Assembly (NCBI GenBank): GCA_964016885.1
Contig: OZ024742.1
Location: forward strand, 69,750,001-69,814,000
DNA from: Eledone cirrhosa
Lineage: Eukaryota
Reading direction: 5' to 3'
Length of the DNA stretch: 64,000 nt
Of this stretch, positions 2,744 to 61,785 are shown piece by piece (position 1 is the stretch's first letter; each line of letters opens with the position of its first letter). The notes beneath the pieces were generated by a model. It worked only from the letters and a program-made list of their open reading frames with translations, did no database searches and was not told where the DNA came from. The translations under genes were made by a program, and so were the position numbers.

Positions 2744-2780
<37 letters not shown>

Positions 2781-2937
2781 CGATAACTTCACTAGTTCCT
2801 TTCCAGAATTTTAAATAAGATAAATTCTTAATTTGTGGTATTATTCTGTCTAAAATGTTTTTGCTAAGTCTGCCAAGGTCCAATTTAGATGGAGCAATTA
2901 ATCTGACTGGTAAATCCGCTTCAAAATTCCTATATAA

Positions 2938-3049
<112 letters not shown>

Positions 3050-3099
3050 GTTCTATTTAAATTGTTGGGATACAACAAGCAAATATATATATTTATATA

Positions 3100-4726
3100 G
3101 GAATTTTGAAACGGATTTATCAGTCAGATTAATTGCACCATCTAAGTCGTCCTTGGCAGACTTAGCAAAAACATTTTAGACAGAATAATACCACAAATTA
3201 AGAATTTATCTTATCTAAAATTATAGAAAGGAACTAGTGAAGTTATCGATTGGTTTAAGGAAATTAAATATAACTATAATAATAAGTGTATTCAGTTGGA
3301 TATTGCTAACTATTACCCATCTATCACTCCTAATCTACTGAATAAAGCACTAACTTACGCATTTAAACATACAGACTTAACTAGCAATGAAATGCACATT
3401 ATATTATCGGCACGGAAAACATTAATAGAATTTAATAACCAACTCTGGACTAGGGCAGATAGAAATAATAACTTCGATATAACTATGGGATCATCCGATT
3501 CCGCTCAGGTAACGGATCTTGTGGGCCTCTTTATAAATAATTCTCTACATAGGAAAATACCTGATACAACCGGAGGTTTATATCGTGACGACATGCTTTT
3601 ACTTATAGAAAATAATAACTGTGAACTAAATAGAAAAAGAAAACAAATTTTACAATTTTTTAATTACCTTAATCTAAAAGTAGAAATAGAGAATAACCAT
3701 AAAATAGTTAACTTTCTAGATGTAACACTAAACCTTAACACATGTCTTCATTATCCATTTCACAAATTAAATGAGAACTTAAACTACGTCAATTTTAACT
3801 CTAATCACCCCAGATCCGTTAAAAATACTATAGTGAACTCTGTACAGGAACGAATTTCGATAATTTCAACTAATAAGAATATATTTGACGAAAAAGCACA
3901 TTATTACAACGAACCGTTAGGTAGAGCTGGGTATAGAAATAAAATTAAATACATTGATAATAATATAACAACTAACCATATTCGTAACAATTTTAACTAT
4001 TTTAAAAATGTTAACAACTATAATAGAAAACCTTACAATAATTCCGAAAACAAAAAAAGAAATAGAACTAGGAACATATTATGGTTCGCTCCTCCTTTTT
4101 CATTAAATATTAAAACCCCTATTGCTAAACTATTTTTTAAAGTTCTTGACAAATGCTTTCATAAAACACATAGATATTATTCAATTTTTAATAGACATAC
4201 TATAAAATTAACTTATTCTTCCACCAAAAGCTTAGCGCAAAATATTAATAGAATTAATAATAGAAATTTAAAACCTAACCAAAATACCACTAATAACCCA
4301 AGCAATATCCAATTTGATAAATGTAACTGTAGAATTAAATCTAACTGTCGGTTAAATAACAATTGCTTAGCTAAAACTATAGTATATAATTGTAATGTAA
4401 AAACTAATTTTAATTCATTTAATTATGTGGGATCCACTTCTACAGAGTTTAAATCCCGCTTCAATAATCATAAAAATTCTTTTACAGATCCAAACAAAAA
4501 ATCTTCAACTTCTCTATCTAGCTTATTATGGGACCTCAAACTAAATAATGTTGAATATTCGTTGATTTGGAATATTATTTCATAAGCTACTCCTTTTAAC
4601 TCCACTTCAGAAAATTGTGATCTTTGTATAGAGGAAATATTTTTTATATTAAAGACCAAAAATTCCCTGAACCTAAGGAACAATTTATTCAGTTGCTGTA
4701 GACATAGATTGAAAATCAACGTTTAA
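3100..4726 (+). pseudogene. PLE reverse transcriptase plus C-terminal GIY-YIG endonuclease, disrupted by in-frame stops (TAG 3224, TAA 4583)
   Basis: RT motifs DIANYYPSI, FDITMGSSDSAQVTDLVGL, GLYRDD, VNFLDVTLNL, SNHP. Endonuclease CNCR...CL..TIVY...YVGST..FKSRFNNH, with CDLCIEE..CCRH after the stop. Confidence 0.85.
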
Positions 4727-6315
4727 ATATAAATTTAAAACGTAATATATAATTAATTAATTAATTATATTAATATATTGAACCTATCGATAAATCATTA
4801 GATTCCTTCATTTTTTGACTGATTATACACTCAAGTAAAAAAAACTTTTCTTCCTAAATATAAATAAACATAATAAATTCTTCTAGAGAAATATACTGAA
4901 AGCTCTTAAAAGGGGAAAATAATTTTTGATAGTTTCTCCTATTTTCGAAAGTTTATCTTTTGAAAGTTTTTTTTTCTTTCTCTTATGGATATAAAAGTAA
5001 ATTAAGTTAGGTAAATATACGTGGAAAATTTTTATACTAAATTTATTAAACATATCATTATTTTAAAATTAAAACTTGAAATATTCTATATTTTTAAAGA
5101 TATATTGTTTTAAAATTATATTGCTTATAATTATATTTCCAAATCGTAATATAATTCTTTTGTATTTTATGTACTTCAAGTATACTATGTACTATATTTA
5201 TATATTCTTCTCTATATATATGTGCGTATATGTGTGTATATGTGTGTATTGAAATACATATACATATGTTTTATGCGTGTATGTCTATTTGTATGTATAT
5301 ATGTTTGTGATGCATATCTACATATTCGTGTGGGTTCATATATATATATGTATACGTGTGAATTGTGTATGTATATATATATATATGCATACAATTCGAT
5401 TGCACTTATTTATAGAGATTATCCCAAGGTTCGTGACAAATAAACATAAAATAACAGTCATAACTACATAACAGGTTAATCTTATAAAACTTATATAAAA
5501 TTTTGTATGATAACATAAAGTGTGTATAACAAAAAAGATTTCCTTTAATATCTTAATAATTTGTAACATCTATATAACTAAATAACATATTTTCCTTCAC
5601 GCTGCTTTGATATTACATTGAAAAGACTTTCTCTGATTTTATAAGTTTCCTATATCTTAAATTAAAAAATCCTTTATATTTTGTATGTATATATTATATA
5701 CGTAGTTAGATATGTATATATATTTTTATACGTGTGTATATATATTTATATATTTTCTGCGTGTGTATATGTGTTATATTCTTCTTATAATATATAGTCT
5801 TAATAATAATATATAGATTTCTTAATATAAAGATCTCAATTTTTAAAGTATTGATCTCAATATTATAACTGATTAACTAAACATTTAATCATATTTAAAC
5901 AATGGTTAAATTTCTCATATTATATATGTATATTCCATTCATGCTTATTAACATTTCAAAATTTTATTTATTCATTTCATCTCAAATGTTAAGATAAATC
6001 TACAAGATATGACTTGGAGTTTTCACTCTCTCTCTCCTTTCTCTTTCTCCTCTCTCTCTCTCTCTTTTTCTTTTACTATTTCTATTTCTTTTCTCTCTCT
6101 GTTGTTATGCTCTCTCTCTCTCTCTCTCTCTCTCTTTTCTCTCTTTTTTCTCTCTCTGTTATTCTGCTCTCTCACTTTCTCTTTCTCCGTAACCCAACGG
6201 CTTACCTAATACTATAAGTATAAATATAACTCCACTATCCGGGAGCTTCCAACAGTAATGGTTGCATTCTTTAAGGGTATGTCAATATTTATTTATAAAA
6301 CTGCTCTATATTATA

Positions 6316-6376
6316 TTTTATCTGATGAAAGCACACCATAATTTAACTTAGTGTCCTTGAAATATGTATAATCAAA
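6316..6376 (+). ncRNA. Degenerate type I HHR in the PLE 3' tail
   Basis: ttttat-CTGATGA-(stem II)-GAA-ATATGTAT-A-atcaaa; same stem I/III design as the HHRs at 48304, 48649 and 51121. Confidence 0.55.
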
Positions 6377-6418
6377 TAAATATGGTTTTATAAATATAGT
6401 TTCCATTTGTTAATATCG

Positions 6419-6477
<59 letters not shown>

Positions 6478-7366: not shown

Positions 7367-7409
<43 letters not shown>

Positions 7410-7410
<1 letters not shown>

Positions 7411-8061
7411 TAGGATTGGTGCCCTGAAATAGCGATGTATACATGAATGTATGTATAGTATATGTGGCGATATACTGTATGCTTAATTAAAAACATTTTC
7501 AAGACCTTGCGCTATTATTTTAAAGTAGTGACTATGTCAATTACTTCTTTTTTCAACAAGGGAAGAGAGATAAGCTGACAGATCTGTTTCACATTGTTGG
7601 TGTTCATCAGAGCTTAGCACACGCCGTCCTTTGTTGAAAATTATAGAGGCAGGATTCTTATAGAATTCCAGTAATAATCAGGAATAATCTTGAAAATGTT
7701 TTTAATTAAACATACAGTATATCGCCAAATATACTATACATACATTCATGTATACATCGCTATTTCAAGGCACCAATCCTAATTTTCAATTTTTGCTGGA
7801 CCGGCAATCGCTTCCTATAATCAGTTCCTGATTATTACTGGAATTCTATAAGAATCCAGCCTCTATAATTTTCAACAAAGGACGGCGTGTGCTAAGCTCT
7901 GATGAACACCAACAGTGTGAAACAGATCTGTCAACTTATCTCTCTTCCCTTGTTGAAAAAAGAAGTAATTGACATAGTCACTACTTTAAAATAAATGCGC
8001 AAGGTCTTGAAAATGTTTTTAATTAAACATACAGTATATCGCCAGATATACTATACATACA

Positions 8062-8066
<5 letters not shown>
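7410..8066. mobile_element. Retrozyme-like insert: inverted partial unit plus about 1.2 forward 317-bp units; HHRs at 7571-7616 (minus) and 7893-7938 (plus)
   Basis: Direct repeat TCTTGAAAATGTTTTTAATTAAACATACAG at 7688 and 8005. HHR taagct-CTGATGA-ACAC caaca GTGT-GAA-ACAGATCTGT-C-a(a/g)ctta. (TA)n on both sides. Confidence 0.8.
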
Positions 8067-8109
<43 letters not shown>

Positions 8110-8112
<3 letters not shown>

Positions 8113-9340
8113 CAATAAATGAAAACCAACAGGTGCGTGTGTTTTTATCAGCAGCATGAACCTCTCAAAGTATAACAATATATATATATATGTATTTCAA
8201 TTTATATACATTTCAATTTATTATAAATTTCCGGTTGGTTGGTTCGATAACCGGATGGTTATAACAGGAAACATGAGTGGACTAGCAACATCACAACTAG
8301 TAATTAAGGACAAAATGAAGACATACAGACACATAGAAAACCAAACTAACAAAACAAATCAGGCACACAACAGATAGAACAAACAAACAACTAGTGACAA
8401 GTAAATAGGCACATAAATAAATAAGTAAATAAATAAATAAGTAAATAAACACACACACGGATGTAACGTTTGCGCAAACTAAGCACACTACACACAAAAA
8501 CAAGATGGTGTAGGACAGAACAAAGGAGGGACACAAAATAAAAACCCAGTCACTGAGGAGGTCACAGAATGTGTGACGATAGAGCTTTGACAATATATAA
8601 ACAACCATCCGGTTATCGAACCAACCAACCACCCGGAAATTTATAATAAATGGAAGTGAAAACAACAGGTGTGTGTTTTTATTGGCAGCATGACCCTCCC
8701 AAAGTATAACAATGTCTGTTTCAACACAGCTTTTCCAATAAGAAATCTTGTAAAACAAATTAAAAAACGAGCTATATATATATATATTTCGTTTCTGAAT
8801 TTGTTTAGCAAGATTCATTATCTGAAAACGTGTGTTGAAACCGATATTGTTATGCTTTGGGAGGGTCATGTTGCCAATAAGAAACACACGCACCAACTGC
8901 TTTCACTCCAATTTATTATAAATCAAATTTAAGAATTTAAGAATTTATAAATTTCCGTTGGTTGGTTGGTTCCATAACCGGACGGTTGTTCATATATTGT
9001 CAAAGTTATTTCGTCACACTTTATGTGACCTCTTCAGTGAGCGGTGATTCTTTTCTTTGTTTTGTGCCTCTCCTTTGTTCTGTCCTACGCTATCTTGTTT
9101 TTAGGACAGAACAAAGGACAGGCATAAAACAAAGAAAAGAATCCCCAGTCACTGAAGAGGTCACAGAATGTGTGACGAAAGAACTTTGACAATACATGAA
9201 CAACCGTCCGGTTATGGAACCAACCAACCAACCGGAAATTAATAAATTCTTAAATTTATAAATTTAATTTATAATAAATTGGATTGAAAGCAACTGGTCC
9301 GTGTGTTTCTTATTGGCAACATAACCCTCCCAAAGCATAA

Positions 9341-9342: not shown

Positions 9343-13924
<4,582 letters not shown>

Positions 13925-13925
13925 C

Positions 13926-14375
13926 TTTATTTGGGTTTGTTGGTTCACCACTGGATAGAACTGGTCATTCTGTGTGGTCAGCCATGATGTAATGTTATGG
14001 AAAGCACTCAACGTAATGCAACCACCCGTCTTCGTTTGTGTAGTTGGTGGTGCGAGTACGGAGTTAATTATTACAAAGTACTGATGTAAATCCTTGAAGG
14101 GTTTATTATAATATGATTATTTCAATGACCGGATTCTCACCTGATGATGTCACCGGATTCATACTGAACCCGGTCATTGAAATAATCATAGTATAATAAA
14201 CCTTTCAAGGATTTACATCAGTACTTTGTAATAATTAACTCCGTACTCGCACCACCAACTACACAAACGAAGACGGTTGGTTGCATTACGTTGAGTGCTT
14301 TCCATAACATTACATCGTGGCTGACCACACAGAATGACCAGTTCTATCCAGTGGTGAACCAACAAACCCAAATAA
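13926..14375. mobile_element. Fold-back mini-element with an HHR at 14138-14193 (plus)
   Basis: Inverted arms about 13926-14136 and 14168-14375; cac-CTGATGA-(ACCGG.TTCA tac TGAA.CCGGT)-GAA-ATAATCAT-A-gta. Confidence 0.7.
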
Positions 14376-14409
14376 ATATTCCTCCATAAATGTCGAGCGC
14401 TTTCAGATG

Positions 14410-14620: not shown

Positions 14621-15962
14621 ATGAACAGCGGCACCGACTCCAGTGTACAGCTATCGCCAGCATGGGGCTAACTAACCTTACACCTTTCGGATTTTGGATG
14701 CTTTGAGCTTTGTCTACCGCTCACCTAGTCCACCGCTGCTCCCATGTCGGCAATATCCAGACTACGGCAGACCTCACTGATTCCTCTAAATATTTCTGGG
14801 TATTCTAATATAACGTGTATTGTATTGACTGATTTCTCTATCCTATACTTCAGGGCATTTGAGATCCACGTTGAATATTAAGACTTGAACATACAGCAGG
14901 TATCACCTGATACCACCCCTTCTCTTCCATCCTCTATATCTATATGTATAGCCCTGTATTATCCGAGTACCCCTCGATCTTTCTTATATTTCCCCTGTGT
15001 TTTGATTTCCTCGATATCTTCCCTGTACTTCCGTTTTACTCCATGCATCACCACCCTAGTTATGACTGCATTTTTTGTTTATGTATTTTTATTGTTTTAT
15101 TTATTTACGTATTTGTACTTTATTTTTTTATATTGTATTTTGCTTATTATTCCTTTTACTTATGTATGTACTTACTCGCTCTATTCCCAGTACATAACTA
15201 CCACTGTGATCATTAGCACACGACCCTGGAATATACTCTATGTACCCATGTATCTGTTTCCTTATTCATTCCCCATACCCACCCTAGAAGCACACTAATA
15301 CAACCTGGACTAACTGGGGACTTGATATAGGCTATTAGTGCATTTCATCGCGTTTTACCACTCTCAACCTCACACCACGGGTGTGAATAAATATTAATTG
15401 TCTGGTAACACGCGATGATACGATGGATGTGGCAGATTTCCTGACTGCGCGCCGGCCAATAGGGCGTTTTAGCCTTCCTTGAGTGTTTGGAAAAATAAAT
15501 TTACCCTTCTTTCGATAAACGAAATTACTCGGACCCGCTCCTTCGTTCCGGGGCTAGGCCGGGCTCGAGACTCGCAGAGCTGCCGGCATTGACCGCCAAA
15601 TAGTACCCTTATTTTCTAGGCTTAGTCATAACCCTTAGCTGTATCATGCCTCTTCCTACTAGCACTTAACTAAACCCCCACACTGTGTGATATAATAGCA
15701 ACCGCTTGGTATATACGATGGCCAGCTGGCGATGGGGGGGGGGCACGCTGACACAACCGACGCCTAAGACAGCTACATTCCTGGAGTGCTCGGAAAAACT
15801 AATTTTCATTTCTTTCGCTAGACGATATTACTCGGAACAGCTGGCACGTGGAAGCAGGTGGTTAGCGTAGGACCCGCAGTCACCCCTGGTTATTGACCGC
15901 TAGCACGGGCATATTTTTACTATATATACTACCCTGACCATTTATCGTAACTATATATATCA

Positions 15963-16652
15963 CAATTAAGTTAAAGATGTACATCCATATATGTATACTG
16001 AAATACTAGTATGTATATGAATACACACACGTATACATATGTAGATGTACCAAGTTTTTTCACTGGTCACTTTACTGTGAGTGGCCAGCTATTCTGTATG
16101 TAAACACACAGACAAACCGGTTTTTAGAGTCATACTGGTTACAAACGAAACGAAATTTAATTTCGTTTCGTTATTTGTTTTTATCGTCTCCGTTGAACCG
16201 GTACTTACTCACACTCTATGCAAATTAGTCTGCCCACTACTAATTTTCATAGAAAAAGCATATAACGATATGTGCTTTTACGATTCTCTAGAGAGGCCGG
16301 AAGATAGGTAAATATTGCTGATGAGTTGTAACAACAACGAAACTAGTTCAATATTCCTTTGTCTGGCTTTCTGGAGAATAGAGGAAAGGTGTTTCCTCAA
16401 AAACCAGTATGACTCTAAAAACCGGTTTGTCTGTGTGTTTACATACAGAATAGCTGGCCACTCACAGTAAAGTGACCAGTGAAAAAACTTGGTACATCTA
16501 CATATGTATACGTGTGTGTATTCATATACATACTAGTATTTCAGTATACATATATGGATGTACATCTTTAACTTAATTGTTTAAGCGTCAGTCATACAAA
16601 AGTGAGTTACAAACGAAACGAAATTTAATTTCGTTTCGTTATTTGTTTTTAT
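15963..16652. mobile_element. Retrozyme-like insert: one 468-bp unit with terminal direct repeat plus inverted partial copy
   Basis: GTTACAAACGAAACGAAATTTAATTTCG at 16138 and 16606; 15963-16140 is the reverse complement of about 16402-16580; TA flanks. Confidence 0.8.
16311..16355 (+). ncRNA. Canonical type I hammerhead ribozyme
   Basis: AATATTG-CTGATGA-GTTGT aaca ACAAC-GAA-ACTAGT-T-CAATATT; stem I extends via ATTCTCTAGAGAGGCCGGA / TCTGGCTTTCTGGAGAAT. Confidence 0.9.
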
Positions 16653-23522: not shown

Positions 23523-23581
<59 letters not shown>

Positions 23582-23964
23582 TATTTCTTTATTAGCCACA
23601 GGGGCACAAAAGAAGGGGACAAATACAAAGGGGGAAGTTTACATACAATAAAAACGTGTAAAATGTTATCACAGATGGAATTTAAAAGTTAGTCGATTTT
23701 CCCCAATAGAGGGAGACAGTTTATATGGGTAACACATACCCCCGAAAAAAATGTGCAACCCTCATCTCCAGGAGTACGAAGAGCTTGTACTCCTTTCCTC
23801 TCCTCCTCCTTTTCCTCAATCTACAGGCTGATATAGAGAGAAGGCCCATTCACTCGGGCCATTCTCGCCACTTTCACCCACCTTTCATAAAACTTGCTGG
23901 GGTACAGCACCTCTCTCTCCATACTGATTCTTCTTCCAAAGTGGTATTTGAAAAAAAGAATCAG
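23582..23964 (-). mobile_element. 5'-truncated Tx1 family A 3' end (about 380 bp)
   Basis: Matches the family A 3' end; GATA flanks. Confidence 0.9.
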
Positions 23965-23970
23965 AGATAG

Positions 23971-25399
23971 ATTTCTTTATTAGCCACAGGGGCACAAAAG
24001 AAGGGGACAAATACAAAGGGGGAAGTTTACATACAATAAAAACGTGTAAAATGTTATCACAGATGGAATTTAAAAGTTAGTCGATTTTCCCCAATAGAGG
24101 GAGACAGTTTATATGGGTAACACATACCCCCGAAAAAAAATGTGCAACCCTCATCTCCAGGAGTACGAAGAGCTTGTACTCCTTTCCTCTCCTCCTCCTT
24201 TTCCTCAACCTACAGGCTGATATAGAGAGAAGGCCCATTCACTCGGGCCATTCTCGCCACTTTCACCCACCTTTCATAAAACTTGCTGGGGTACAGCACC
24301 TCTCTCTCCATCCTGATTCTTCTTCCAAAGTGGTATTTGAAAAAAAGAATCAGTTGTTGGCCGGAGAGAAAGGTGTCTGACCTCAGCCCTTTCAACCTTG
24401 TCCACCATACAACCTCTTTCGCCATAGCTATCACACAAAGGAAAACCGCCTCTCCTTCGTTTTTGAAGGAGGGTGGCGGTTTGATCATGACAATGGACTC
24501 GGTGGTCAACTGGATTGGTCCCACCCGCGACAATAGTCGTTCTACATAGCCCCACAGGTCAGTGACGCCCGGGCAGTGTATGAATGCGTGCGCGACGGTT
24601 TCTTCGTCTCGCACGCACCTCGGACAGATCTTTTTTGCAGGGTCCCTGCCCGGGCGCCCATGTCTGTAGAGCTTGTCTCGAACTGGTAGAGCTCCTCGGT
24701 AGCACTGCCAGGCCAGGGACTTTTGGAAGTTGTCCATCGGTCCCGGGCGGAAGGTCCTACCGAACAGACTGGCCAGTTCATCTTCCTCTACGCCTAGAGT
24801 TTCACCGAGCGCGTCGTCGCACTTGCTGCGGACCAACCCTCTATAGAATGATGAAGTGGAGTCTCCACTGATCGCCGGGTCCGCCTGCCAGAGGGCTGTG
24901 AGCGCCTGAGCACATTCGATGTGCCAGTCGCCCATTTTCCTCGGTCTCTGCTTGACCCAGGACTGCAGCTCGGTCAGCGAGACGAGTCGTAGGAAGGCTC
25001 GCCTCACGAACGGGGCCCACACCGGTTGTCCGGTGAGGAATACGTAGAGATGCCGCAGCCTGAGCGCGTGTTTGCGCATCGTCAACCACGGCATCCCCAG
25101 CCCTCCGTTAGAAGGGTGTTGGCAGCAGATGGATCTTCTCACCAAAGGAGCCCGCCTCTTCCAAAGGAATCGGAAGAGCGCGCGCTCCATTTTGGCGAGC
25201 GTTTTGGCTGGACAAGGCACGACGGTCAAGCGGTAGTAGATGGCGGACGCTATAAAAGTGTTCGCCACCTCCGCTCGACCTTTCAAGGATAGTTTGCACT
25301 CGGCCCACTTCTGGGTGAGTGCAAACACCTTGGCCGTCACTTCGTTCCAGTTCTTCTCCACCTGGAGGTCCGGACCAAACCAGACCCGAGCAGCTTTAC
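23971..25399 (-). mobile_element. 5'-truncated Tx1 family A copy (about 1.4 kb)
   Basis: Encodes the ORF2 C-terminus (to 24210); joins family B directly at about 25400. Confidence 0.9.
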
Positions 25400-31236: not shown

Positions 31237-34200
31237 CTACAGGCTGATATAGAGAGAAGGCCCATTCACTCGGGCCATTCTCGCCACTTTCACCCACCTT
31301 TCATAAAACTTGCTGCGGTACAGCACCTCTCTCTCCATCCTGATTCTTCTTCCAAAGTGGTATTTGAAAAAAAGAATCAGTTGTTGGCCGGAGAGAAAGG
31401 TGTCTGACCTCAGCCCTTTCAACCTTGTCCACCATACAACCTCTTTCGCCATAGCTATCACACAAAGGAAAACCGCCTCTCCTTCGTTTTTGAAGGAGGG
31501 TGGCGGTTTGATCATGACAATGGACTCGGTGGTCAACTGGATTGGTCCCACCCGCGACAATAGGCGTTCTACATATCCCCACAGGTCAGTGACGCCCGGG
31601 CAGTGTATGAATGCGTGCGCGACGGTTTCTTCGTCTCGCACGCACCTCGGACAGATCTTTTTTGCAGGGTCCCTGCCCGGGCGCCCATGTCTGTAGAGCT
31701 TGTCTCGAACTGGTAGAGCTCCTCGGTAGCACTGCCAGGCCAGGGACTTTTGGAAGTTGTCCATCGGTCCCGGGCGGAAGGTCCTACCGAACAGACTGGC
31801 CAGTTCATCTTCCTCCACGCCTAGAGTTTCACCGAGCGCGTCGTCGCACTTGCTGCGGACCAACCCTCTATAGAATGACGAAGTGGAGTCTCCACTGATC
31901 GCCGGGTCCGCCTGCCAGAGGGCTGTGAGCGCCTGAGCACATTCGATGTGCCAGTCGCCCATTTTCCTCGGTCTCTGCTTGACCCAGGACTGCAGCTCGG
32001 TCAGTGAGACGAGTCGTGGGAAGGCTCGCCTCACGAACGGGGCCCACACCGGTTGTCCGGTGAGGAACACGTAGAGATGCCGCAGCCTGAGCGCGTGTTT
32101 GCGCATCGTCAACCACGGCATCCCCAGCCCTCCGTTAGAAGGGTGTTGGCAGCAGATGGATCTTCTTACCAAAGGAGCCCGCCTCTTCCAAAGGAATCGG
32201 AAGAGGGCGCGCTCCATTTTGGCGAGCGTTTTGGCTGGACAAGGCACGACGGTCAAGCGGTAGTAGATGGCGGACGCTATAAAAGTGTTCGCCACCTCCG
32301 CTCGACCTTTCAAGGATAGTTTGCACTCGGCCCACTTCTGGGTGAGTGCAAACACCTTGGCCGTCACTTCGTTCCAGTTCTTCTCCACCTGGAGGTCCGG
32401 ACCAAACCAGACCCCGAGCAGCTTTACCGGTCCTTCCGTCCAGCGTCCGACGACGCCATCGGAAGGCATCGGTCTGCCTCTCCACGATCCGAGTTGCAAA
32501 CCGATGGACTTGTCCCGGTTCAGCTTCGCTCCTGTGAGACTTTCGTATTCCTTTAGTAAGGTGCCGACTTTCTCGATTTGCGAGGCGCTCGACACCATTA
32601 CTGTCACGTCGTCGGCGTAGGCCGACGCCGCTTTCCGCAGTCCCGGTTCCAGAGGGATGCCCTGCAATAGCTCCAGCTTCCGCAGTAGTGGCTCGAGAGT
32701 CAGTACGTACAGAAGGGAGGAGAGAGGGCATCCCTGTCGAATGGATCGCGTAATATGGAACGGCTCCGAGAGGTAACCGTTCACCTTGACCCTTGAGCAG
32801 ATGTTGCTGTTGTGCATTGCAGCAATCCAGCCCCTGAACACGGGTCCGAAGCCTGCCGCCTCGAGCACCGCATCCAGGTAACGATGGTCAACCCTATCGA
32901 AAGCCTTAGACTGATCCAAGTTGATCAGGGCCCCACCGAAGCCGGGTTTACACCCTACCCTCTCTATGATGTATCGCATGAGGTGGAAGTTGTCGTGTAT
33001 GGACCTGGTCGGGATCGCGCATGTCTGCGCTTCTCCCACCAGGTTCTCGACGACAAGCGCCAGCCTCTTTGCCAACACCTTGGCCAAAATCTGTAACTCT
33101 GTGTTTAGCAGCGTTATGGGCCGGAAGTTGCTTATGTCATCCCCCTTATTCTCGTCCTTCCTGATTAGTGTGACCACGCCCCCGGTTACAGAACTGGGAA
33201 TTCTCCCGTTCTGTTGCCAGTTGCAGTAGACCGCTTCCAGGAGACCGGAGAATAAGTCCGGCATTGCTACGTAAAATTCGTAGGGTAGACCGTCGAGACC
33301 TGGAGATTTGCGTTTGCCGCATTGGCTCAGCGCGTCCCCTATCTCAGTGGCTGAAATCGGCTTTTCGCAGAACTTCGCCTCGCTGTCCGAGAGTCGCGGT
33401 AGGCCGTCGAGGTATGGACCGAAATCCATAGCCTCTCCCGGCGCGCCGCTCCCCCCGAACAGCCGAGCAAAGTGCCGCTGAAAAGCCGCACACATCTGCT
33501 TCGGCTCACGTATCACGCGTCCGTTTTGGTCCTTCAAAGACCGAATCGTGGACTTGTTGCCACTTTTTGCCTCCGTCACTCGGGCCCAGCTAACAGCTTT
33601 GGCTCCCTCGTTTCCCAGAGCACGTATTTTGCTTCTGACAACGCAGCCCTCGTGCTTTGCGTCGAAGAACTGGTCCAAGGCCGTTCTCGTTGCTAGCACG
33701 CTGGCTACGTTGCCACTTCTAATAGCCTCTTCTACTTTATCTACCAGTTCCTTCTCGGTTCTATTTCTATCTAACGCTAATTCTTTACTAAAAACTATCG
33801 AGTCTAATCTAACTGCCCTCTTGAGAGAGTACCACCATCTGTTGTTGACAATGGCCCCTGTCAAGTGCTGTTTAACTAAAGTGCTAATCCGTCTACTGTA
33901 GGCTTTGCTTGTCGGTAACGACAAGTTCAGCTTCCAGTAGCCGGGTCCTTGTCTATGGGTTCTATCAAGGTTGGCCATGCAGGTCACTAGTTTGTGATCC
34001 GAATAGGCAACCATGAACATTTGTGGACAGCTTAACATGTCCCTATCCTTATTTCTAACTAGAACCCTATCTAGGTACGATCTAGATGTTCCGCTACGAT
34101 TACTCCACGTCCACAGTGGCGCAGTCGGAAAATCTAGTCGATATCTATCGGCCAGGTCAAATCGGTCGATTAACTGTTTGAGGCTGTTACACCCCCCTTT

Positions 34201-34674
34201 ATCGGGACATGCTCCCACATAGTCCCAACGTGCATCTAGGATTCCATTCCAGTCCCCCACTAAAAGCAAGGAGCGGGACGTTCCCAGAAAAGTCTCTAGA
34301 CGTTTGAAGAAGTCTGGCCGCGGTGTCCCGGATGGGGCATATGCGGCCACCAGCCTGAACGCTCCACCTTCACTACCGTCAACGTCTAGGACCACCAGTC
34401 GACCCTCCGGGTCCAGATGTACCGTCTGTGTTACGAGGCCCAGGTGTTTCCGCAACAAAACGGCAACTCCGCCCCCACCCCCCGGTTGACAGAGAGATGC
34501 GTAGATCTCAAAGTCATCGAAGATGGGGGCCAGCTGTCGCTCGCCGTGGATCCTGGACTCGCAAATGGCTACCACATCCAAACTGTGCGACCTGAGGTCG
34601 TTTAAGAGTTTGCCCTGTTTCCAGGGCATCCCCAGGCCGCGTACGTTCACACATCCAACTCTTATATTGGCCAT
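31237..34674 (-). CDS. Tx1 ORF2: APE endonuclease, reverse transcriptase, C-terminal zinc finger
   Basis: APE motifs NVRGL, ICES, GDWN, YLDR, SDH; RT motifs KSPGLDGLPYEFY, NFRPITLLN, LDQSKAFDRV, IRQGCPLS, YADD; CPRC...ETVAHAFIHC. Confidence 0.96.
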   Translation of the reverse strand: MANIRVGCVNVRGLGMPWKQGKLLNDLRSHSLDVVAICESRIHGERQLAPIFDDFEIYASLCQPGGGGGVAVLLRKHLGLVTQTVHLDPEGRLVVLDVDGSEGGAFRLVAAYAPSGTPRPDFFKRLETFLGTSRSLLLVGDWNGILDARWDYVGACPDKGGCNSLKQLIDRFDLADRYRLDFPTAPLWTWSNRSGTSRSYLDRVLVRNKDRDMLSCPQMFMVAYSDHKLVTCMANLDRTHRQGPGYWKLNLSLPTSKAYSRRISTLVKQHLTGAIVNNRWWYSLKRAVRLDSIVFSKELALDRNRTEKELVDKVEEAIRSGNVASVLATRTALDQFFDAKHEGCVVRSKIRALGNEGAKAVSWARVTEAKSGNKSTIRSLKDQNGRVIREPKQMCAAFQRHFARLFGGSGAPGEAMDFGPYLDGLPRLSDSEAKFCEKPISATEIGDALSQCGKRKSPGLDGLPYEFYVAMPDLFSGLLEAVYCNWQQNGRIPSSVTGGVVTLIRKDENKGDDISNFRPITLLNTELQILAKVLAKRLALVVENLVGEAQTCAIPTRSIHDNFHLMRYIIERVGCKPGFGGALINLDQSKAFDRVDHRYLDAVLEAAGFGPVFRGWIAAMHNSNICSRVKVNGYLSEPFHITRSIRQGCPLSSLLYVLTLEPLLRKLELLQGIPLEPGLRKAASAYADDVTVMVSSASQIEKVGTLLKEYESLTGAKLNRDKSIGLQLGSWRGRPMPSDGVVGRWTEGPVKLLGVWFGPDLQVEKNWNEVTAKVFALTQKWAECKLSLKGRAEVANTFIASAIYYRLTVVPCPAKTLAKMERALFRFLWKRRAPLVRRSICCQHPSNGGLGMPWLTMRKHALRLRHLYVFLTGQPVWAPFVRRAFPRLVSLTELQSWVKQRPRKMGDWHIECAQALTALWQADPAISGDSTSSFYRGLVRSKCDDALGETLGVEEDELASLFGRTFRPGPMDNFQKSLAWQCYRGALPVRDKLYRHGRPGRDPAKKICPRCVRDEETVAHAFIHCPGVTDLWGYVERLLSRVGPIQLTTESIVMIKPPPSFKNEGEAVFLCVIAMAKEVVWWTRLKGLRSDTFLSGQQLILFFKYHFGRRIRMEREVLYRSKFYERWVKVARMARVNGPSLYISL

Positions 34675-34707
34675 GTTGGTGCTGAAAAGTTAAAAGAGGA
34701 AAAGAGA

Positions 34708-46045: not shown

Positions 46046-47127
46046 ATATTTTCCTCTATTCGTATAATACCTACTTAAATATAATTGTTGAAAGGATAAA
46101 TTAAGCACTTCTTTTGATCTAAATAATTTATCTCATAGTATTATAACCAAATCAATTACATAAAAAACCCATACCAATTGTTAAATGTTTCCACTCATAT
46201 CATATCAATTTAAATTATACATAAGCATAGATAATTTACCTTTGAATTTTGTTATCCTAATTTTTCTTCTATAGTTACAATATTACTTTAGCATCCTCGA
46301 ATATTTTTTCTTTGGTATAGTATATATTATTTTTGGTATAGTATCTATCTTAAGCTAATATAAGTAACATATAAACTGTCTAACGGTCTATATATATATT
46401 TTTTGGCCAATCTAATAACGTCATATTTTAAATAATTTCAAAAATGTTAAGTCCAACTGTATTTTTCTCCCACTCACGTAACGTCTCCTGTGTTGGTTTT
46501 TTTTTCTAATCATATGCTTGGTTGTCACCTATCTGTCCAGCTCGTTTGACCGCCAGTATATAAAAAGAATCCTGCATCTCCTATGCATTTTGTCTGCCGA
46601 GAACATGTTTTGGATTATGTTATACATAAGCCTTGCATCTTCGAAATATGCAATAATAAAATAAATAGAGCTGATCTAAAGTAACTATCTTTCGTTTATT
46701 ATTTTTACCATTATATATATATATATATGAAAACTTAAGTAAGTGACATAGTCACTACTTTAAAACTGATAGCGTATGGTCTTCAACATGTTTTTAATTA
46801 AGCATACGGTATATTACCAAATATACTATACTTACATTCATATATATATATATATATGGGGTAACAAGTTATCGTTATAGGTAATCCAGGTAGAGGTTGT
46901 GAGTACTCTGCGTCGTGGATAGTTTTAACGTACGGCTATGTTTAACTCAAAAAGATGTTTCCATAGTCAGGCAGCAAGTTCGTGATAATTCCTATGTAGG
47001 TTATACTTGGAGTAATAATAGTGAAAGAATGAAGAGTAACATGGTTGGCTGTACAACAAGGGGCTTTATTTCAGGTATTAACAATTGTTTCATTGATCAG
47101 GTGAGTCTAGAGGCCGCTGATCGCTCA

Positions 47128-47246
47128 AAGTTGCGTCACTCGATCTCCATTACATTATTTACCTCTGATAAAATCCTCAGAATACTGAGTATTCTGAGGA
47201 TTTGATCAGAGGTAAATAATGTAATGGAGTTCGACTGACGCAACTT
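47128..47246. repeat. Short inverted repeat (about 58-bp arms) ending in (TA)n
   Basis: AAGTTGCGTCA...CCTCAGAATACT / AGTATTCTGAGG...TGACGCAACTT. Confidence 0.7.
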
Positions 47247-47405
47247 ATATATATATATATATATATATATGTAGATAAATCTACCAAGAGTTTACGGTAG
47301 TGTCCAATCCGTATGGAGAACTCAATGTATTCCGGATATCATGGAAAGAAGAGATGTAATGAAAAACCACTTTCGGTGAAAGATAAACGGTATACAGAGT
47401 CAAGA

Positions 47406-47820
47406 TAAAATATTAAACAAATAATGAATAAACAATTCCTTATATTAAACAAAAAAAGTTCATTATTTAACGATCGTTTCTAGGATATATATGTGTTAGA
47501 ATTGGTATGCATATTCAACAGATCTATGTACAAAATTATACAAAATTATACAAATTATCAAGATTAAATATACATACCAAACACATATATACGCCGTCTT
47601 CAGAAATAATATTTATTTATTTCTGAAGACGGCGTATATATGTGTTTGGTATGTATATTTAATCTTGATAATTTGTATAATTTTGTATAATTTTGTACAT
47701 AGATCTGTTGAATATGCATACCAATTCTAACACATATATATCCTAGAAACGATCGTTAAATAATGAACTTTTTTTGTTTAATATAAGGAATTGTTTATTC
47801 ATTATTTGTTTAATATTTTA
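47406..47820. mobile_element. Fold-back with 204-bp arms, apparently perfect, each containing a long-stem-II HHR (47463-47609 minus, 47617-47763 plus)
   Basis: TTATTT-CTGAAGA-[116 nt foldable]-GAA-ACGATCGT-T-AAATAA. Confidence 0.75.
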
Positions 47821-47850
47821 TATATATATATATATATATAATGGTAAAAG

Positions 47851-48259: not shown

Positions 48260-48843
48260 CTTCAAAATATTAATAAATATAGAGATTCATGTGATCAAAT
48301 ATATTTTATTATACATATTTCAGAGATACTGAGCTGTTTCAACAGTACGTCCTCATCAGATAAAATAAGTTGATGCCTGACATACCTTGACTATGTTGAT
48401 GGTTATAATTTAGTCATGGCAGTGATTAGTTATGACAAAACTCGATATTTATATACCTTAAGTTGAAACATGAAAAATTACATATAATACAGAGGGTATA
48501 TAAATATTGAGTTTTGTCATAACTAATCACTGCCATGACTAAATTATAACCATCAACATAGTCAAGGTATGTCAGGCATCAACTGATATGTTGATTTAAA
48601 ACTGCACTATTAACAAGTGTTTTTTAGCCTTCATATCATGTTCTCCTATTTTATCTGATGAAAACGCAAATATTATTGTTTGATGATGTTTGTTTTTGAA
48701 ATGCGCATAATAAAATATATGGAACTCCTTTAACCATCTTTTGATCTTATATTATGCATACTCCAGTCCCACAAACTGTAGAGTGCTTCTTATCCGATAT
48801 CTGCATTGCTTTATTGTACTACAATAAAACTCACCTCCTACAT

Positions 48844-48845
<2 letters not shown>
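48260..48845. mobile_element. Composite PLE-tail insert: one fold-back family (HHR 48304-48365 minus) fused to a second family (HHR 48649-48715 plus)
   Basis: Inverted arms about 48369-48457 and 48495-48584; TTTTAT-CTGATGA...GAA-ATGCGCAT-A-ATAAAA; 48586-48843 matches 50805-51230. Confidence 0.7.
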
Positions 48846-48874
<29 letters not shown>

Positions 48875-50804: not shown

Positions 50805-51232
50805 TGTAGGAGGTGAGTTTTATTGTAGCACAATAAAGCAATGCAAATATCGGATAAGTAGCACTCTACAGTTTGTAGGACTGGAGTATAAATAATATAA
50901 GATCAAAAGATGGTTAAAAGAGTTCCAAGTATTTTATTATACGCATTTCAAAAACAAATATCATCATGAGATGACATCTACGTTTTCATCAGATAAAATA
51001 GGGATACATGATATAAAGGTTAAAAAACACTTGTGAACAGTGAAGTTATAAATCAACATATGTTGATTTATAACTTCACTGTTCACAAGTGTTTTTTAAC
51101 CTTTATATCATGTATCCCTATTTTATCTGATGAAAACGTAGATGTCATCTCATGATGATATTTGTTTTTGAAATGCGTATAATAAAATACTTGGAACTCT
51201 TTTAACCATCTTTTGATCTTATATTATTTATA
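50805..51232. mobile_element. Spacerless palindrome (50887-51232, centre 51059/60) of an HHR-bearing PLE tail; HHRs at 50932-50998 (minus) and 51121-51187 (plus)
   Basis: Arms appear to be exact reverse complements; TTTTAT-CTGATGA...GAA-ATGCGTAT-A-ATAAAA. Confidence 0.8.
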
Positions 51233-51719: not shown

Positions 51720-51746
51720 GGTATATAAATATGAAAATCAACGTAC

Positions 51747-52829
51747 AGCAAACTGTATTGAGATACCGCTATAGAGAGCAAAGATTGCCAACAAAGTTTG
51801 TGTTACTGTCATTGAGGATACTACCATTTTTTCATCAAAATTCACATCCGTCTGAAATATGACGTAAATCAGCATACACGCAACGATAAGAGTGAATAAG
51901 AAGAGGTCGACTATATAGATGGAGAATTGTGTGTTGATTCGATCCAACAGCTCCATTATCTCTTCATATTTCTTCTGAAGATAAATCAACTTGCTGTTAA
52001 TGTTGTTAGTTGTTTTTTGTTTGTCGTCTAGCAGCTTCAATTCCTGCGTGAGTGCATGTAGCTCGGAACATATTATTTTCACCAGGAAATAAAGTAACAT
52101 CTCGTCGCTTAGTATCCTAGATGCGATGAACCAACTTAAAAGTAGGTAGTTTATAGTTTCAGCTACTGGATTTCTCCATATTGGTATTTGTGTTAAGGTG
52201 TTCATTGTAGTATTCATGAATTCACTATTACTGAATATTAGGATAATTGATATAGCAAGGATTATTACGATAGCTGAAATCACTACAGTCAATTTAATGG
52301 TCCACTTTAATTTCCTGAAATAATCTTGGTTCTTCAGAAAAACATAAGTCGTAAATTTCTTGATTAATCTTCTGCCAAACACATTATTAATGATAAATTT
52401 CATGCCATGATTCAAAATTTCCATAAAATAGAAGAACACGAAGTTTAAGTAAACGATAAATTTCCCTTTACTCAACTCTGTGTCTACCATTATACATAGC
52501 CGTATTAGATTCCAAAGTAATAATAGAAAAACAATACACTGGAAAACTTTAAATAACTTCTGTTGAGGCCTGGTTAAATAATTTGAAGGTTGCATCTCTT
52601 GACCGCTGAATAGTGTGAAATATATTAAGGGTTTAAACGTTTCCATCAGAATTTCTTTACTTGGATCTTGTTTCGATCGCCAGTGGTCAATATTAGTGGA
52701 AGTGCTACAAAAAGATAAGGCAACACTGGTGATAACAGAGGGAGTATGATGCTGACTTTGTGAATTATTATTCTTTTGTTCGTGTTCTGAAATAACTGAT
52801 ACTCTTGAGTTTGGCGAACATTTTGCCAT
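51747..52829 (-). CDS. Gustatory-receptor-like (GRL / 7tm chemoreceptor superfamily) gene, large first coding exon
   Basis: 361 codons with about 6 hydrophobic helices. GR-like segment IICSELHALTQEL...LQKKYEEIMELLDRINTQFSIYI. Phase-0 donor GCT/GTACGT at 51746. Family assignment is by eye. Confidence 0.7.
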
Positions 52830-52869
52830 TATTTTGCTGCTTCTCGGAGCCGCCTGTATTTGTAGTGAG

Positions 52870-53645
52870 CCTTTGATTATTGTTGCAGTTGTTGTTATTG
52901 TTGTGGTAGTTTAGTTTATATCGTTAGTGAATGGGGTGGAGTTGGCGGTAGTGGTATATTTTATATTGCAGGTTGTATTGATGGCAGTGGTAGTAGTGAT
53001 GATCTCTGTGATGGTGGACACATGCTATTGTCTATATTGGTGGTGGTGGTGATGGTGTCTGTAATGGCGGTGAAAGTTGTAGCAGCTATAGTGGTAGAAT
53101 CTGTAGTGGTGACTGTAGTGGAGAGGGATGCAATGATGGTAGCTGTAGTGATGGTGGTTGCTGTAATGGTGGCGGACGTAGTAGTGGTAATTAAAATGGT
53201 AGTGGATGTTGTACTGTCAAGGATAATAATGTGGTATTGGTAAATGTAGCAATGATGGTAGCTGTCATGCGAGAAATAGTGAGAGAGGTGTCTCGTGGTG
53301 TCGGCTACGGATATCTTTGAAGGTTATTGTAAATGCAGTGTCTGTGGCTAAAGTAAAACTAATACCTGTAGTGGTGACAGTATCTGTAGTGGTGGTGACA
53401 GTGGCTGTAGTGGTGGCGGTAGTTATTGTTGTGATGGTGATAGTGTCTGTAGTGGTGGTGGTGGTAATAGTGGTTGCTGTGGTAACTATAGCTGTAATGG
53501 TTGTGGTAGTGGCTGTAGTGGTGGTAATAGTGACTGAGTGACTGTAGTGGTGGTGATAGTGGCTGTAGTGGTGGTGATAGTAGCTGTAGTGGTGGTGGTA
53601 GTGATGTTGTGATGGTGGTAGTGGTTGTAGTTGTGGTGATAGTGC
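52870..53645. repeat. Degenerate (GTG/GTA/GAT) trinucleotide low-complexity tract
   Basis: Repeated GTAGTGGTGGTGATAGTGGCT-like units. Confidence 0.8.
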
Positions 53646-54850: not shown

Positions 54851-55044
54851 CAAACACGTCAATATCAAATCAGATATTATATTTACTCATCTCACTCCTA
54901 CGCGAATATGATAAACTTATTATTTGACAATATTTGAATAATGTTTAAGTGAGTAGGGATTGTCCGTCGGATTATTATTTTGTTAATTATCTGATCAAAT
55001 CTAAATAGAACGGAAAAGCTGTTAAACAATTCTATTGTATGGTG

Positions 55045-55073
<29 letters not shown>

Positions 55074-55079
<6 letters not shown>

Positions 55080-57572
55080 ATAAATGCTCTGAAATAGCGA
55101 TATATATGTGAATATAGACATAGAATATTCGAAAATATTCTGTATGTTTATAATAAACATTTTGAAGACCTAATCGCTATAGAATAGAATACGTCACGTA
55201 TTACAATTAGATTCTCGATAAAAGCAAGGGAAGTAATCTACGCGTTTCATTCTTGTTAGAAATCTTCAGGACTACATATCCAGTGCTTTTATCGAGAATG
55301 ACACAGCTAGAGACTTATAGAATACTTAGCTGTGTACAGGAACTGGTTTGAAAGAGCGGTTGCCGGTCCGGCAGATATTTTCGAATATTCTATGTCTATA
55401 TTCACATATATATCGCTATTTCAGAGCATTTATTCCAATTTCTAATTTCTGCCGGACCGGCAACCGCTCTTTCAAACCAGTTCCTGTACACAGCTAAGTA
55501 TTCTATAAGTCTCTAGCTGTGTCATTCTCGATAAAAGCACTGGATATGTAGTCCTGAAGATTTCTAACAAGAATGAAACGCGTAGATTACTTCCCTTGCT
55601 TTTATCGAGAATCTAATTGTAATACGTGACGTATTCTATTCTATAGCGATTAGGTCTTCAAAATGTTTATTATAAACATACAGAATATTTTCGAATATTC
55701 TATGTCTATATTCACATATATATCGCTATTTCAGAGCATTTATTCCAATTTCTAATTTCTGCCGGACCGGCAATCGCTCTTTCAAACCAGTTCCTGTACA
55801 CAGCTAAGTATTCTATAAGTCTCTAGCTGTGTCATTCTCGATAAAAGCACTGGATATGTAGTCCTGAAGATTTCTAACAAGAATGAAACGCGTAGATTAC
55901 TTCCCTTGCTTTTATCGAGAATCTAATTGTAATACGTGACGTATTCTATTCTATAGCGATTAGGTCTTCAAAATGTTTATTATAAACATACAGAATATTT
56001 TCGAATATTCTATGTCTATATTCACATATATATCGCTATTTCAGAGCATTTATTCCAATTTCTAATTTCTGCCGGACCGGCAACCGCTCTTTCAAACCAG
56101 TTCCTGTACACAGCTAAGTATTCTATAAGTCTCTAGCTGTGTCATTCTCGATAAAAGCACTGGATATGTAGTCCTGAAGATTTCTAACAAGAATGAAACG
56201 CGTAGATTACTTCCCTTGCTTTTATCGAGAATCTAGTTGTAATACGTGACGTATTCTATTCTATAGCGATTAGGTCTTCAAAATGTTTATTATAAACATA
56301 CAGAATATTTTCGAATATTCTATGTCTATATTCACATATATATCGCTATTTCAGAGCATTTATTCCAATTTCTAATTTCTGCCGGACCGGCAACCGCTCT
56401 TTCAAACCAGTTCCTGTACACAGCTAAGTATTCTATAAGTCTTTAGCTGTGTCATTCACGATAAAAGCACTGGATATGTAGTCCTGAAGATTTCTAACAA
56501 GAATGAAACGCGTAGATTACTTCCCTTGCTTTTATCGAGAATCTAATTGTAATACGTGACGTATTCTATTCTATAGCGATTAGGTCTTCAAAATGTTTAT
56601 TATAAACATACAGAATATTTTCGAATATTCTATGTCTATATTCACATATATATCGCTATTTCAGAGCATTTATTCCAATTTCTAATTTCTGCCGGACCGG
56701 CAATCGCTCTTTCAAACCAGTTCCTGTACACAGCTAAGTATTCTATAAGTCTCTAGCTGTGTCATTCTCGATAAAAGCACTGGATATGTAGTCCTGAAGA
56801 TTTCTAACAAGAATGAAACGCGTAGATTACTTCCCTTGCTTTTATCGAGAATCTAATTGTAATACGTGACGTATTCTATTCTATAGCGATTAGGTCTTCA
56901 AAATGTTTATTATAAACATACAGAATATTTTCGAATATTCTATGTCTATATTCACATATATATCGCTATTTCAGAGCATTTATTCCAATTTCTAATTTCT
57001 GCCGGACCGGCAACCGCTCTTTCAAACCAGTTCCTGTACACAGCTAAGTATTCTATAAGTCTCTAGCTGTGTCATTCTCGATAAAAGCACTGGATATGTA
57101 GTCCTGAAGATTTCTAACAAGAATGAAACGCGTAGATTACTTCCCTTGCTTTTATCGAGAATCTAATTGTAATACGTGACGTATTCTATTCTATAGCGAT
57201 TAGGTCTTCAAAATGTTTATTATAAACATACAGAATATTTTCGAATATTCTATGTCTATATTCACATATATATCGCTATTTCAGAGCATTTATTCCAATT
57301 TCTAATTTCTGCCGGACCGGCAACCGCTCTTTCAAACCAGTTCCTGTACACAGCTAAGTATTCTATAAGTCTCTATCTGTGTCATTCTCGATAAAAGCAC
57401 TGGATATGTAGTCCTGAAGATTTCTAACAAGAATGAAACGCGTAGATTACTTCCCTTGCTTTTATCGAGAATCTAATTGTAATACGTGACGTATTCTATT
57501 CTATAGCGATTAAGTCTTCAAAATGTTTATTATAAACATACAGAATATTTTCGAATATTCTATGTCTATATT

Positions 57573-57580
<8 letters not shown>
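55074..57580 (+). repeat. Retrozyme-type array: inverted unit (55074-55374) followed by 7 tandem 310-bp units and a partial unit, in (TA)n
   Basis: TCGAATATTC recurs at 55381, 55691, 56001, 56311, 56621, 56931, 57241 and 57551; units differ by only a few substitutions; one HHR per unit. Confidence 0.93.
55548..55590 (+). ncRNA. Type I HHR of the 310-bp unit (also at 55858, 56168, 56478, 56788, 57098, 57408; minus copy 55233-55275)
   Basis: GTAGTC-CTGAAGA-t-TTCT aaca AGAA-t-GAA-ACGCGT-A-GATTAC; stem I extended by ATTCTCGATAAAAGCA / TGCTTTTATCGAGAAT. Confidence 0.9.
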
Positions 57581-57620
<40 letters not shown>

Positions 57621-57689
57621 ACAGGATTGGTGTAAATATCCAAAGGTTTAGAGTAGTCAATCCGTTGGACGAATTATGTATAATCAGTT

Positions 57690-59624: not shown

Positions 59625-59658
59625 AAAGAATAGAGGTGTAACACACAAGTTATTATAT

Positions 59659-60034
59659 ATTGGTAAACGGAATAGAAAATGCTGACAAATTGTTCACAGT
59701 CGAAAAATAGTTTAATTAGGAATAAAAGAGTATTAGTAATTGTATGAGTTAGTATTCAGTTGTGGTTTTAAGTTTTTAAGTTTTTACCGGTTGCGCATTT
59801 CTAAATGCTTTTCAAAATTAATTTTGAGATAGAGTGTCCGTGTTGTTTGCTCTGATCTGGACACTGTATCTCAAAATTATTTTTGAAAAGCATTTAGAAG
59901 TGCGCAACCGGTAAAAACTTAAAAACTTAAAACCACAACTGAATACTAACCCATACAATTACTAATACTCTTTTATTCCTAATTAAACTATTTTTCAACT
60001 GTGAACAATTTGTCAGCATTTTCTATTCCGTTTA

Positions 60035-60040
<6 letters not shown>
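59659..60040. repeat. Fold-back element, about 180-bp arms with 19-nt loop, TA-flanked
   Basis: ATTGGTAAACGGAATAG...AGTGTCC / GGACACTG...CCGTTTACCAAT; no intact HHR core seen. Confidence 0.8.
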
Positions 60041-60090
<50 letters not shown>

Positions 60091-60910: not shown

Positions 60911-61234
<324 letters not shown>

Positions 61235-61478: not shown

Positions 61479-61524
<46 letters not shown>

Positions 61525-61525
<1 letters not shown>

Positions 61526-61785
61526 GAATGTATGTATAGTATATTTGGTAATATACTGTATGTTTAATTAAAAACATTTTGAAGACCTTGCGCTATTATT
61601 TTAAAGTAGTGACTATGTCACTTACTTCTTTTTTCAGCAAAAGAAGGGAAATAAGCCGACAGATCTGTTTCACACTGTTGGTGTTCCTCAGAGCCTAGTA
61701 CTCGCCGACCTCTGCCGAAAATTATAGAGTCTGGATTCTTATAGAATTCCAGTAATAATCAGGAACTGATTATACAGAGCTAGTG
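61525..61785 (-). mobile_element. Diverged copy of the 317-bp retrozyme-like family; HHR at 61652-61697
   Basis: Collinear with 7443-7684; TAGGCT-CTGAGGA-ACAC caaca GTGT-GAA-ACAGATCTGT-C-GGCTTA; another fragment at about 46740-46840. Confidence 0.8.

Follow-up and report, generated by a model that had tools for sequence, protein, structure and literature searches.

A young hammerhead repeat array with fixed Penelope-type ends in (TA)n

In the window, by which we mean the whole 64-kb stretch of DNA that was analysed, we found a young array of non-coding hammerhead units with fixed ends of the Penelope type, set in (TA)n. It was likely inserted by a reverse transcriptase (RT) and endonuclease borrowed from a Penelope-type element (PLE) that would have copied a multi-unit RNA, with uncut read-through a likelier template than a circle. 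The 310-bp repeat is a new family of non-LTR retrozyme, within an element class that is already known.

The original prediction had described seven nearly identical, non-coding 310-bp units with a hammerhead in each (an ACGCGT stem III and a 16-bp distal stem I), preceded by an inverted copy of 301 bp and flanked by (TA)n on both sides, and this description was borne out (Table 1). The seven units differ from the majority sequence at 0, 1, 1, 2, 1, 0 and 2 positions, respectively. Five of the seven variant events are private to one unit; a C>T change at unit position 90 is common to units 2 and 5, and neither units 3 and 6 nor units 4 and 7 have a variant in common. The inverted copy, 302 bases long when the base common with the array is counted, shows 0 differences from the majority unit. 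Its 26-nt tail is present only at the inverted end and is absent from the direct end of the array. The units stand head to tail without an LTR layout, and the GC content around them is 0.31–0.34 (54–58 kb of the window). The longest ORF starting with Met is 30 aa in sense and 17 aa in antisense, and no ORF of an autonomous PLE (telomerase-like RT plus GIY-YIG endonuclease) was found within the 310-bp unit.

Table 1. Positions of the array, of its relatives and of other PLE-type features in the window
Feature	Position	Strand	Remarks
Direct array	55375..57583	+	7 x 310 bp plus 39 bp; TRF: period 310, 7.1 copies, 99% matches
Array unit starts	55375, 55685, 55995, 56305, 56615, 56925, 57235, 57545	+	
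Inverted copy	55074..55375	-	Unit positions 74 round to 65; one of its 302 bases is common with the array
Tail at inverted end	55074..55099	-	26 nt, unit positions 40-65; at most 34 nt including the ATATATAT overlap
Head-to-head junction	55375		A single base in common; CAGA resemblance, offset by 1 base (slight microhomology)
Left (AT)14 tract	55048..55075		Presumably the left part of the target microsatellite; overlaps the inverted copy by its last 2 bases
Right (AT)21 tract	57576..57617		First 8 bases double as the unit's own ATATATAT (positions 32-39)
Type I hammerhead motif, unit 1	55524..55612	+	Recurs every 310 bp
Predicted hairpin capped by TTCTATAAG	55485..55520	+	Loop sequence retained, stem sequence altered in sister family B
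Predicted 3' domain	55642..55730	+	Unit positions 268 round to 46; closing ATAGCG/CGCTAT helix, also predicted in family B
Family B, full insertion	7409..8074		(TA)n, inverted copy 7409-7684, 1.2 direct units 7688-8074, (TA)n
Family B hammerheads in 7409..8074	7610; 7899	-; +	
Family B, 5'-truncated copy	61516..61774	-	Hammerhead at 61691; homologous end position, inside a TA run
Family B, short 3' fragment	46728..46849	+	Between TA runs; homologous end position
RT-encoding PLE	9410..13868	-	ORF 10689-12860, DKG motif, GIY-YIG remnant
Broken Hydra-clade-like PLE	2778..6420	+	ORF 3227-4585, continuing beyond one stop
Inverted insertions	1962-2195, 8496-9340, 13926-14376, 15962-16580, 47128-47246, 47405-47821, 48365-48861, 50887-51232, 59654-60044, 61099-61198		

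Non-LTR retrozymes are recognised by at least two units of 150–450 bp that are non-coding, carry a hammerhead each, have a GC content below 50% and are dispersed; the 7.1 units of 310 bp show all of these features. Where a target-site duplication is present, it should exceed 4 bp in retrozymes. Here both ends of the insertion blend into (TA)n, where the empty site and any such duplication are unreadable. We also considered a tRNA-derived SINE. The unit has no exact match to the Pol III A and B boxes and no A tail. Matches with one mismatch do not stand in the A-then-B order and are absent from the sister family described below, so this reading was dropped.

A motif scan recovered the type I hammerhead in 7 of 7 units as well as in the inverted copy. 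The CTGAAGA core lies at 55554 and again every 310 bp, with the predicted cut at 55584/55585; in the inverted copy the core is at 55269 on the minus strand and the predicted cut at 55239/55238. Stem I is built of the distal helix, an internal loop and a 6-bp proximal helix, and stem II has a U.U mismatch at its base, followed by 4 bp and an AACA loop. Elsewhere in the window, the strict scan returned 8 matches as against 0 in each of 100 shuffles, so the motif is not a chance match. Rfam gave no match at gathering level within the window and missed the hammerhead of the unit. Additionally, 13 sub-threshold Rfam matches of the miRNA type were rejected, as they were produced by the inversion hairpin.

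Folding set the hammerhead region apart from its shuffles (z -5.7), and the same was true of the unit closed into a circle (z -4.5). In a monomer, only 1–2 pairs are possible within the stem III palindrome, and stem II is predicted to be paired in 0–18% of the circular ensemble. The monomer ribozyme of the window haplotype is thus modelled as weak. Between two units, the palindrome is predicted to form a duplex of -9.5 kcal/mol. The short palindromic stem III resembles that of the axolotl HHR_Amex1, and the U.U at the base of stem II that of HHR_Amex2; according to the text of Cervera & de la Pena (2020, PMC7229834), axolotl retrozymes with a short stem III palindrome or a stem II U.U cut well only as dimers.

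A blastn search of the 310-bp unit against the rest of the window matched a sister family only, which we refer to as family B (the 310-bp family being A). Its unit is 317 bp long and 66% identical to the 310-bp unit globally. In the family B hammerhead, stem III is the palindrome ACAGATCTGT, and the AACA loop is that of the 310-bp family. The full family B insertion has two arms with 89% identity, and its inverted copy terminates in the same 26-nt tail as that of the 310-bp family. Helices were compared through folding only, as MAFFT misaligned the hammerhead core between the families; distal stem I and further hairpins are predicted in A and B alike although the sequence differs. Proximal stem I was not folded in the prediction for one family B copy (B1, direct). 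The predicted 3' domain contains the best-conserved stretch between A and B (87% over 30 columns) together with the fixed end at position 39, and it may be regarded as a candidate RT-binding region.

According to the original prediction, the ends of the copies would be permuted. This was the one part of its interpretation that we had to reject, because direct and inverted ends are fixed in both families and contigs of run X1 agree with the direct end. Across the two families in the window, unit position 39 is where all four direct ends lie (57583, 8074, 61516 and 46849), and both inverted ends fall at position 65 (55074 and 7409). In run X1, 606 contigs aligned to one unit, and 10 of them leave it at 56963, which is again position 39, and continue into (AT)n. 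This was the best supported position among the loose ends listed, where single contigs also go into TA at 56994 (position 70) and 56854 (position 240). The 10 joined ends indicate that the 310-bp family is multi-copy and dispersed, so the locus-bound expansion that the original prediction had named as its own refutation does not apply; the family is young and high-copy. It has to be kept in mind that X1 may be the sample behind the window assembly and is therefore not independent of it. Of the rest of the earlier interpretation, a young non-LTR retrozyme, a (TA)n target, a PLE-type inverted end and mobilisation by a PLE were retained.

The anatomy of the insertion points to PLEs. As described in the text of Craig et al. 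(2021, PMC8557442), EN+ PLEs carry an inverted 5'-truncated copy and a tail of 30–40 bp at one end and form partial or full tandems; (TA)n is targeted by the Hydra and Naiad clades, canonical hammerheads occur in Hydra, and non-autonomous Chlamys such as MRC1 form head-to-tail multimers. In the array we likewise found an inverted 5'-truncated copy beside the 5' end, a fixed 3' end, a tail of 26–34 nt at one end and a (TA)n target. Set against the EN+ PLEs (Hydra, Neptune and Naiad) and Chlamys of that text, the tandems, inverted copy, tail and (TA)n are alike, whereas the 310-bp unit is a self-contained repeat without an ORF.

The same arrangement is present in the window in an element that encodes an RT. 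The PLE at 9410–13868 consists of (TA)n, an inverted copy whose tail measures about 42 nt, pLTR-ORF-pLTR and (TA)n, and serves us as an internal comparison of layout, not as a demonstrated partner. Its pLTRs hold long (TG)n runs. A candidate for the partner clade is that of the Hydra-like PLEs, represented by the broken element at 2778–6420. This element has a CxCX5C linker, GIY-YIG-like, CxxC and CxH motifs, an inverted 5' piece (2778–2947) and a 3' hammerhead at 6322 with a long loop II. Pfam returned no family for its ORF 3227–4585; an Atlas lead pointed to RT, HTH_animal and GIY-YIG clusters (score 0.95), and on the strength of these clusters and the motifs we grouped the ORF with Hydra-like PLEs. 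No DNA similarity was found between this element and the 310-bp unit, and blastn of the unit revealed no autonomous PLE with matching terminal or pLTR sequence within the 64-kb window. Terminal fragments related to the broken PLE and bearing hammerheads lie at 48359(-), 48655(+), 50992(-) and 51127(+).

Studies of PLE enzymes suggest how such an insertion could be made. The PLE protein of Poseidon PAc from Anolis cuts and extends both target strands and uses uncut RNA, and two internal RT start sites bound the PAc tail (Frangieh et al. 2024, PMC11167929). By analogy, unit positions 39 and 65 may be two internal RT start sites of the PLE kind, and the 26-nt tail would then mark the second of them. 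The AT-rich target is a further likeness to PAc. In contrast, the autonomous PAc has its start in an AC-rich stem-loop that does not resemble the target (PMC11167929), whereas the main start in the 310-bp unit would lie in a AUAUAUAU run that could pair with the target.

What we observe are 7.1 direct units together with an inverted copy that bears the 26-nt tail, TA tracts on the outside, and ends common to the sister family and to other genomic copies. To produce this, a source array would have been transcribed, and its hammerheads, predicted to be weak as monomers, would have cut incompletely or only as dimers. The enzyme would then nick both strands of (TA)n, as PLE biochemistry suggests, and reverse transcription would begin at two points within the unit. 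Starting from position 39, one cDNA would span seven units, and the other, from position 65, would span one; primed from opposite strands, the two would meet head to head and be joined at 55375. Units may later have exchanged sequence to some extent.

As to the template, all eight copies carry A at position 7 of the hammerhead core, a minority state in X1, where T accounts for 80% of the depth (279447.5 of 348146.6). Drawn independently, A in all eight would be expected with a probability of about 2e-6 (hand calculation). This shared minority state indicates one source for the eight copies, as would follow from one circle, from an array of uniform units transcribed without cutting, or from growth in place. 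Within the PLE picture, we rank an uncut linear multimer first, at slightly under an even chance, because the ribozyme is predicted to be weak and because PLE RT in vitro accepts uncut RNA and has two internal starts (PMC11167929), so that a linear multimer can account for the array without a circle. A circle takes second place as a credible but less probable template, and a short insertion expanded in place comes last as an improbable one.

A 310-nt circular RNA would require the same element and enzyme, with rolling-circle reverse transcription from a fixed internal start, and we consider it possible but rather doubtful. The near-identity of all eight copies, which belong to one minority haplotype and show 0–2 base differences, fits a single circle equally well. 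Both cDNAs would have run across the predicted cut site, the circular unit folds far above its shuffles, and circles are the main RNA form of tested retrozymes, accumulating in coral, mussel and axolotl, and part of the model published in the text of PMC7229834. However, the C>T change of units 2 and 5 is unlikely to be a double hit (p 0.03, simple simulation) and weighs a little against an array copied purely from one circle; later conversion or block duplication after insertion could also yield it. The predicted weakness of the ribozyme is another point against the circle. Furthermore, PLE RT needs no cleavage in vitro, none of the RNA reads terminated at the cut site (PMC11167929), and ORF-bearing PLEs make partial tandems via the same route.

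Other sequencing runs bear on the circle as well. Between 66 and 88% of the sampled words of the unit were present in 20 runs from 17 studies with 18 coded organism labels; contigs and reads were compared with one 310-base unit in 4 of the 24 listed runs and 4 of the 18 labels. Two of these runs with other organism labels, X6 and X20, each gave one flankless contig closing on itself, at a depth of 34 and 5, respectively. Such a contig favours the circle, though the graph would look no different for a tandem source. Both contigs are free of variants and share the same two changes (window 56798 and 56801), which improve pairing of the predicted hammerhead: core position 7 becomes U, and the base of stem II gains a Watson-Crick pair. 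A circle with both changes would hold 0.83 of the query words, and several listed runs hold 0.84.

Many variants would be expected of a resident family, and X1 has them; X6 and X20 show one each. The circular copy in these two runs was probably carried over in trace amounts from a source with many copies or high expression. Since the second change is a minority of 17% in X1, this source would not be DNA like that of X1. Horizontal spread of the retrozyme as a free, viroid-like circle that passes from host to host and enters genomes by way of PLE enzymes seems to us very unlikely. Among the listed runs, none was an RNA run carrying the unit, and pattern scans of metagenome contigs and viral contigs gave no matches. 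In raw Hi-C data of organism J (X21, from a different sample than the holder, X12), there were 0 reads in 1938 million letters, which is no test of absence; likewise, the value of 0.00 of words in X23 and X24 (organism D, other sample) is no proof of it.

Another explanation would have a short PLE-type insertion, made of the inverted copy and 1–4 units, grow later in place by unequal crossover, as a minisatellite does. The C>T change in units 2 and 5 fits the duplication of a three-unit block, the family B insertion at 7409–8074 has only 1.2 units, and such growth has been suggested for arrays in the main text of Li et al. (2026, bioRxiv 10.64898/2026.07.22.740005). Nevertheless, the missing common variants in units 3/6 and 4/7 and the private nature of most variant events speak against it, and there was little time for expansion, as the array is as young as an inverted copy with no differences. 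We therefore regard growth in place as unlikely and prefer direct copying of an uncut multi-unit transcript.

We also asked how far the assembly itself could have produced the inversion or the number of units, by fold-back or mis-joined reads. Several perfect palindromes are present in the window (50887–51232 and 15962–16580, both 100%), and the unit number is that given by the assembly. On the other hand, the inverted arm stops exactly at the tail position of family B, whose arms, 89% identical, are old; the units have private substitutions; and the tandem junction is present in other runs. Among the joints listed in the four runs compared with one unit, no strand-change joint was seen. Taken together, an artefact is the least probable of the explanations, with hardly any weight left to it.

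A link between retrozymes and PLEs had been drawn in the original prediction too. The layout of the insertion supports it, although the link is not new: mobilisation of retrozymes by PLEs was proposed in the text of PMC7229834 and restated in that of PMC7761336, and Li, Clavereau & Pollet (2026, bioRxiv 10.64898/2026.07.22.740005) present retrozymes, in their main text, as non-autonomous PLEs on the basis of co-occurrence and pLTR homology in Xenopus. Our conclusion on origin is the same, and the Xenopus retrozymes are alike in unit size (averages of about 310–340 bp) and in reaching up to seven units; 8 of 9 of their dimers stayed uncut in vitro. The kind of evidence differs: in Xenopus it is pLTR homology, and here it is the anatomy of the insertion, with no homologous pLTR found in the window. 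The main text of that preprint contains neither "tail" nor "insertion site", and "inverted" occurs in one reference only.

Metazoan non-LTR retrozymes have units of 220–245 bp in coral, 350–390 bp in mussel and 330/350 bp in axolotl, as given in the text of PMC7229834. The 310-bp family shares with them a tandem, non-coding, low-GC unit in the 150–450-bp range, a type I hammerhead in each unit and a stable predicted circle. For those retrozymes, cleavage and circles were demonstrated, while in the present family both are putative; conversely, the text of PMC7229834, its supplement aside, gives no fixed ends, tail, inverted copy or (TA)n targeting for retrozymes. In the literature covered (mostly outside subscription journals, and for PMC7229834 and the preprint the main texts, whose supplements may bear on the point), we found no account of the 310-bp family or of PLE-type ends on retrozyme arrays.

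What moves animal retrozymes, and whether their arrays stem from circles, uncut transcripts or later expansion, is left undecided in the literature covered. The 310-bp family adds support for PLE mobilisation at the level of the insertion, in the form of two fixed putative start sites, a tail, an inverted copy and a TA target across two families with 66% identity. Additionally, it points to an RNA region and to positions for in vitro work with a PLE protein.

The surroundings of the array yielded several further observations. The host is an animal and may, from its microsatellite content, be cephalopod-like. The window region is rich in PLE-type debris. Of the flanks of the array (57618–57640, and 55010–55047 on the left), the right one opens with sequence closely resembling the outer end that the inverted copy of family B has at 7409, so that an older PLE-type end may lie next to the right TA tract. 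Some ten more inverted insertions of the head-to-head kind lie mostly beside TA tracts and have arms that are 75–100% identical; some of them carry hammerhead motifs (2025/2066 and 16318). An L1-like LINE cluster occupies 17222–43540 on the minus strand. It comprises two subfamilies with endonuclease, RT and zf-RVT, with (ATAG)n tracts at the boundaries, one open frame of 1150 aa at 31237–34689 and a 389-bp tandem at 23577–24353. Closer to the array, an intronless frame of 390 aa on the minus strand (51738–52910) showed weak matches to 7tm chemosensory/odorant receptors (E 3e-5 and 1.4e-4, below Pfam cut-offs).
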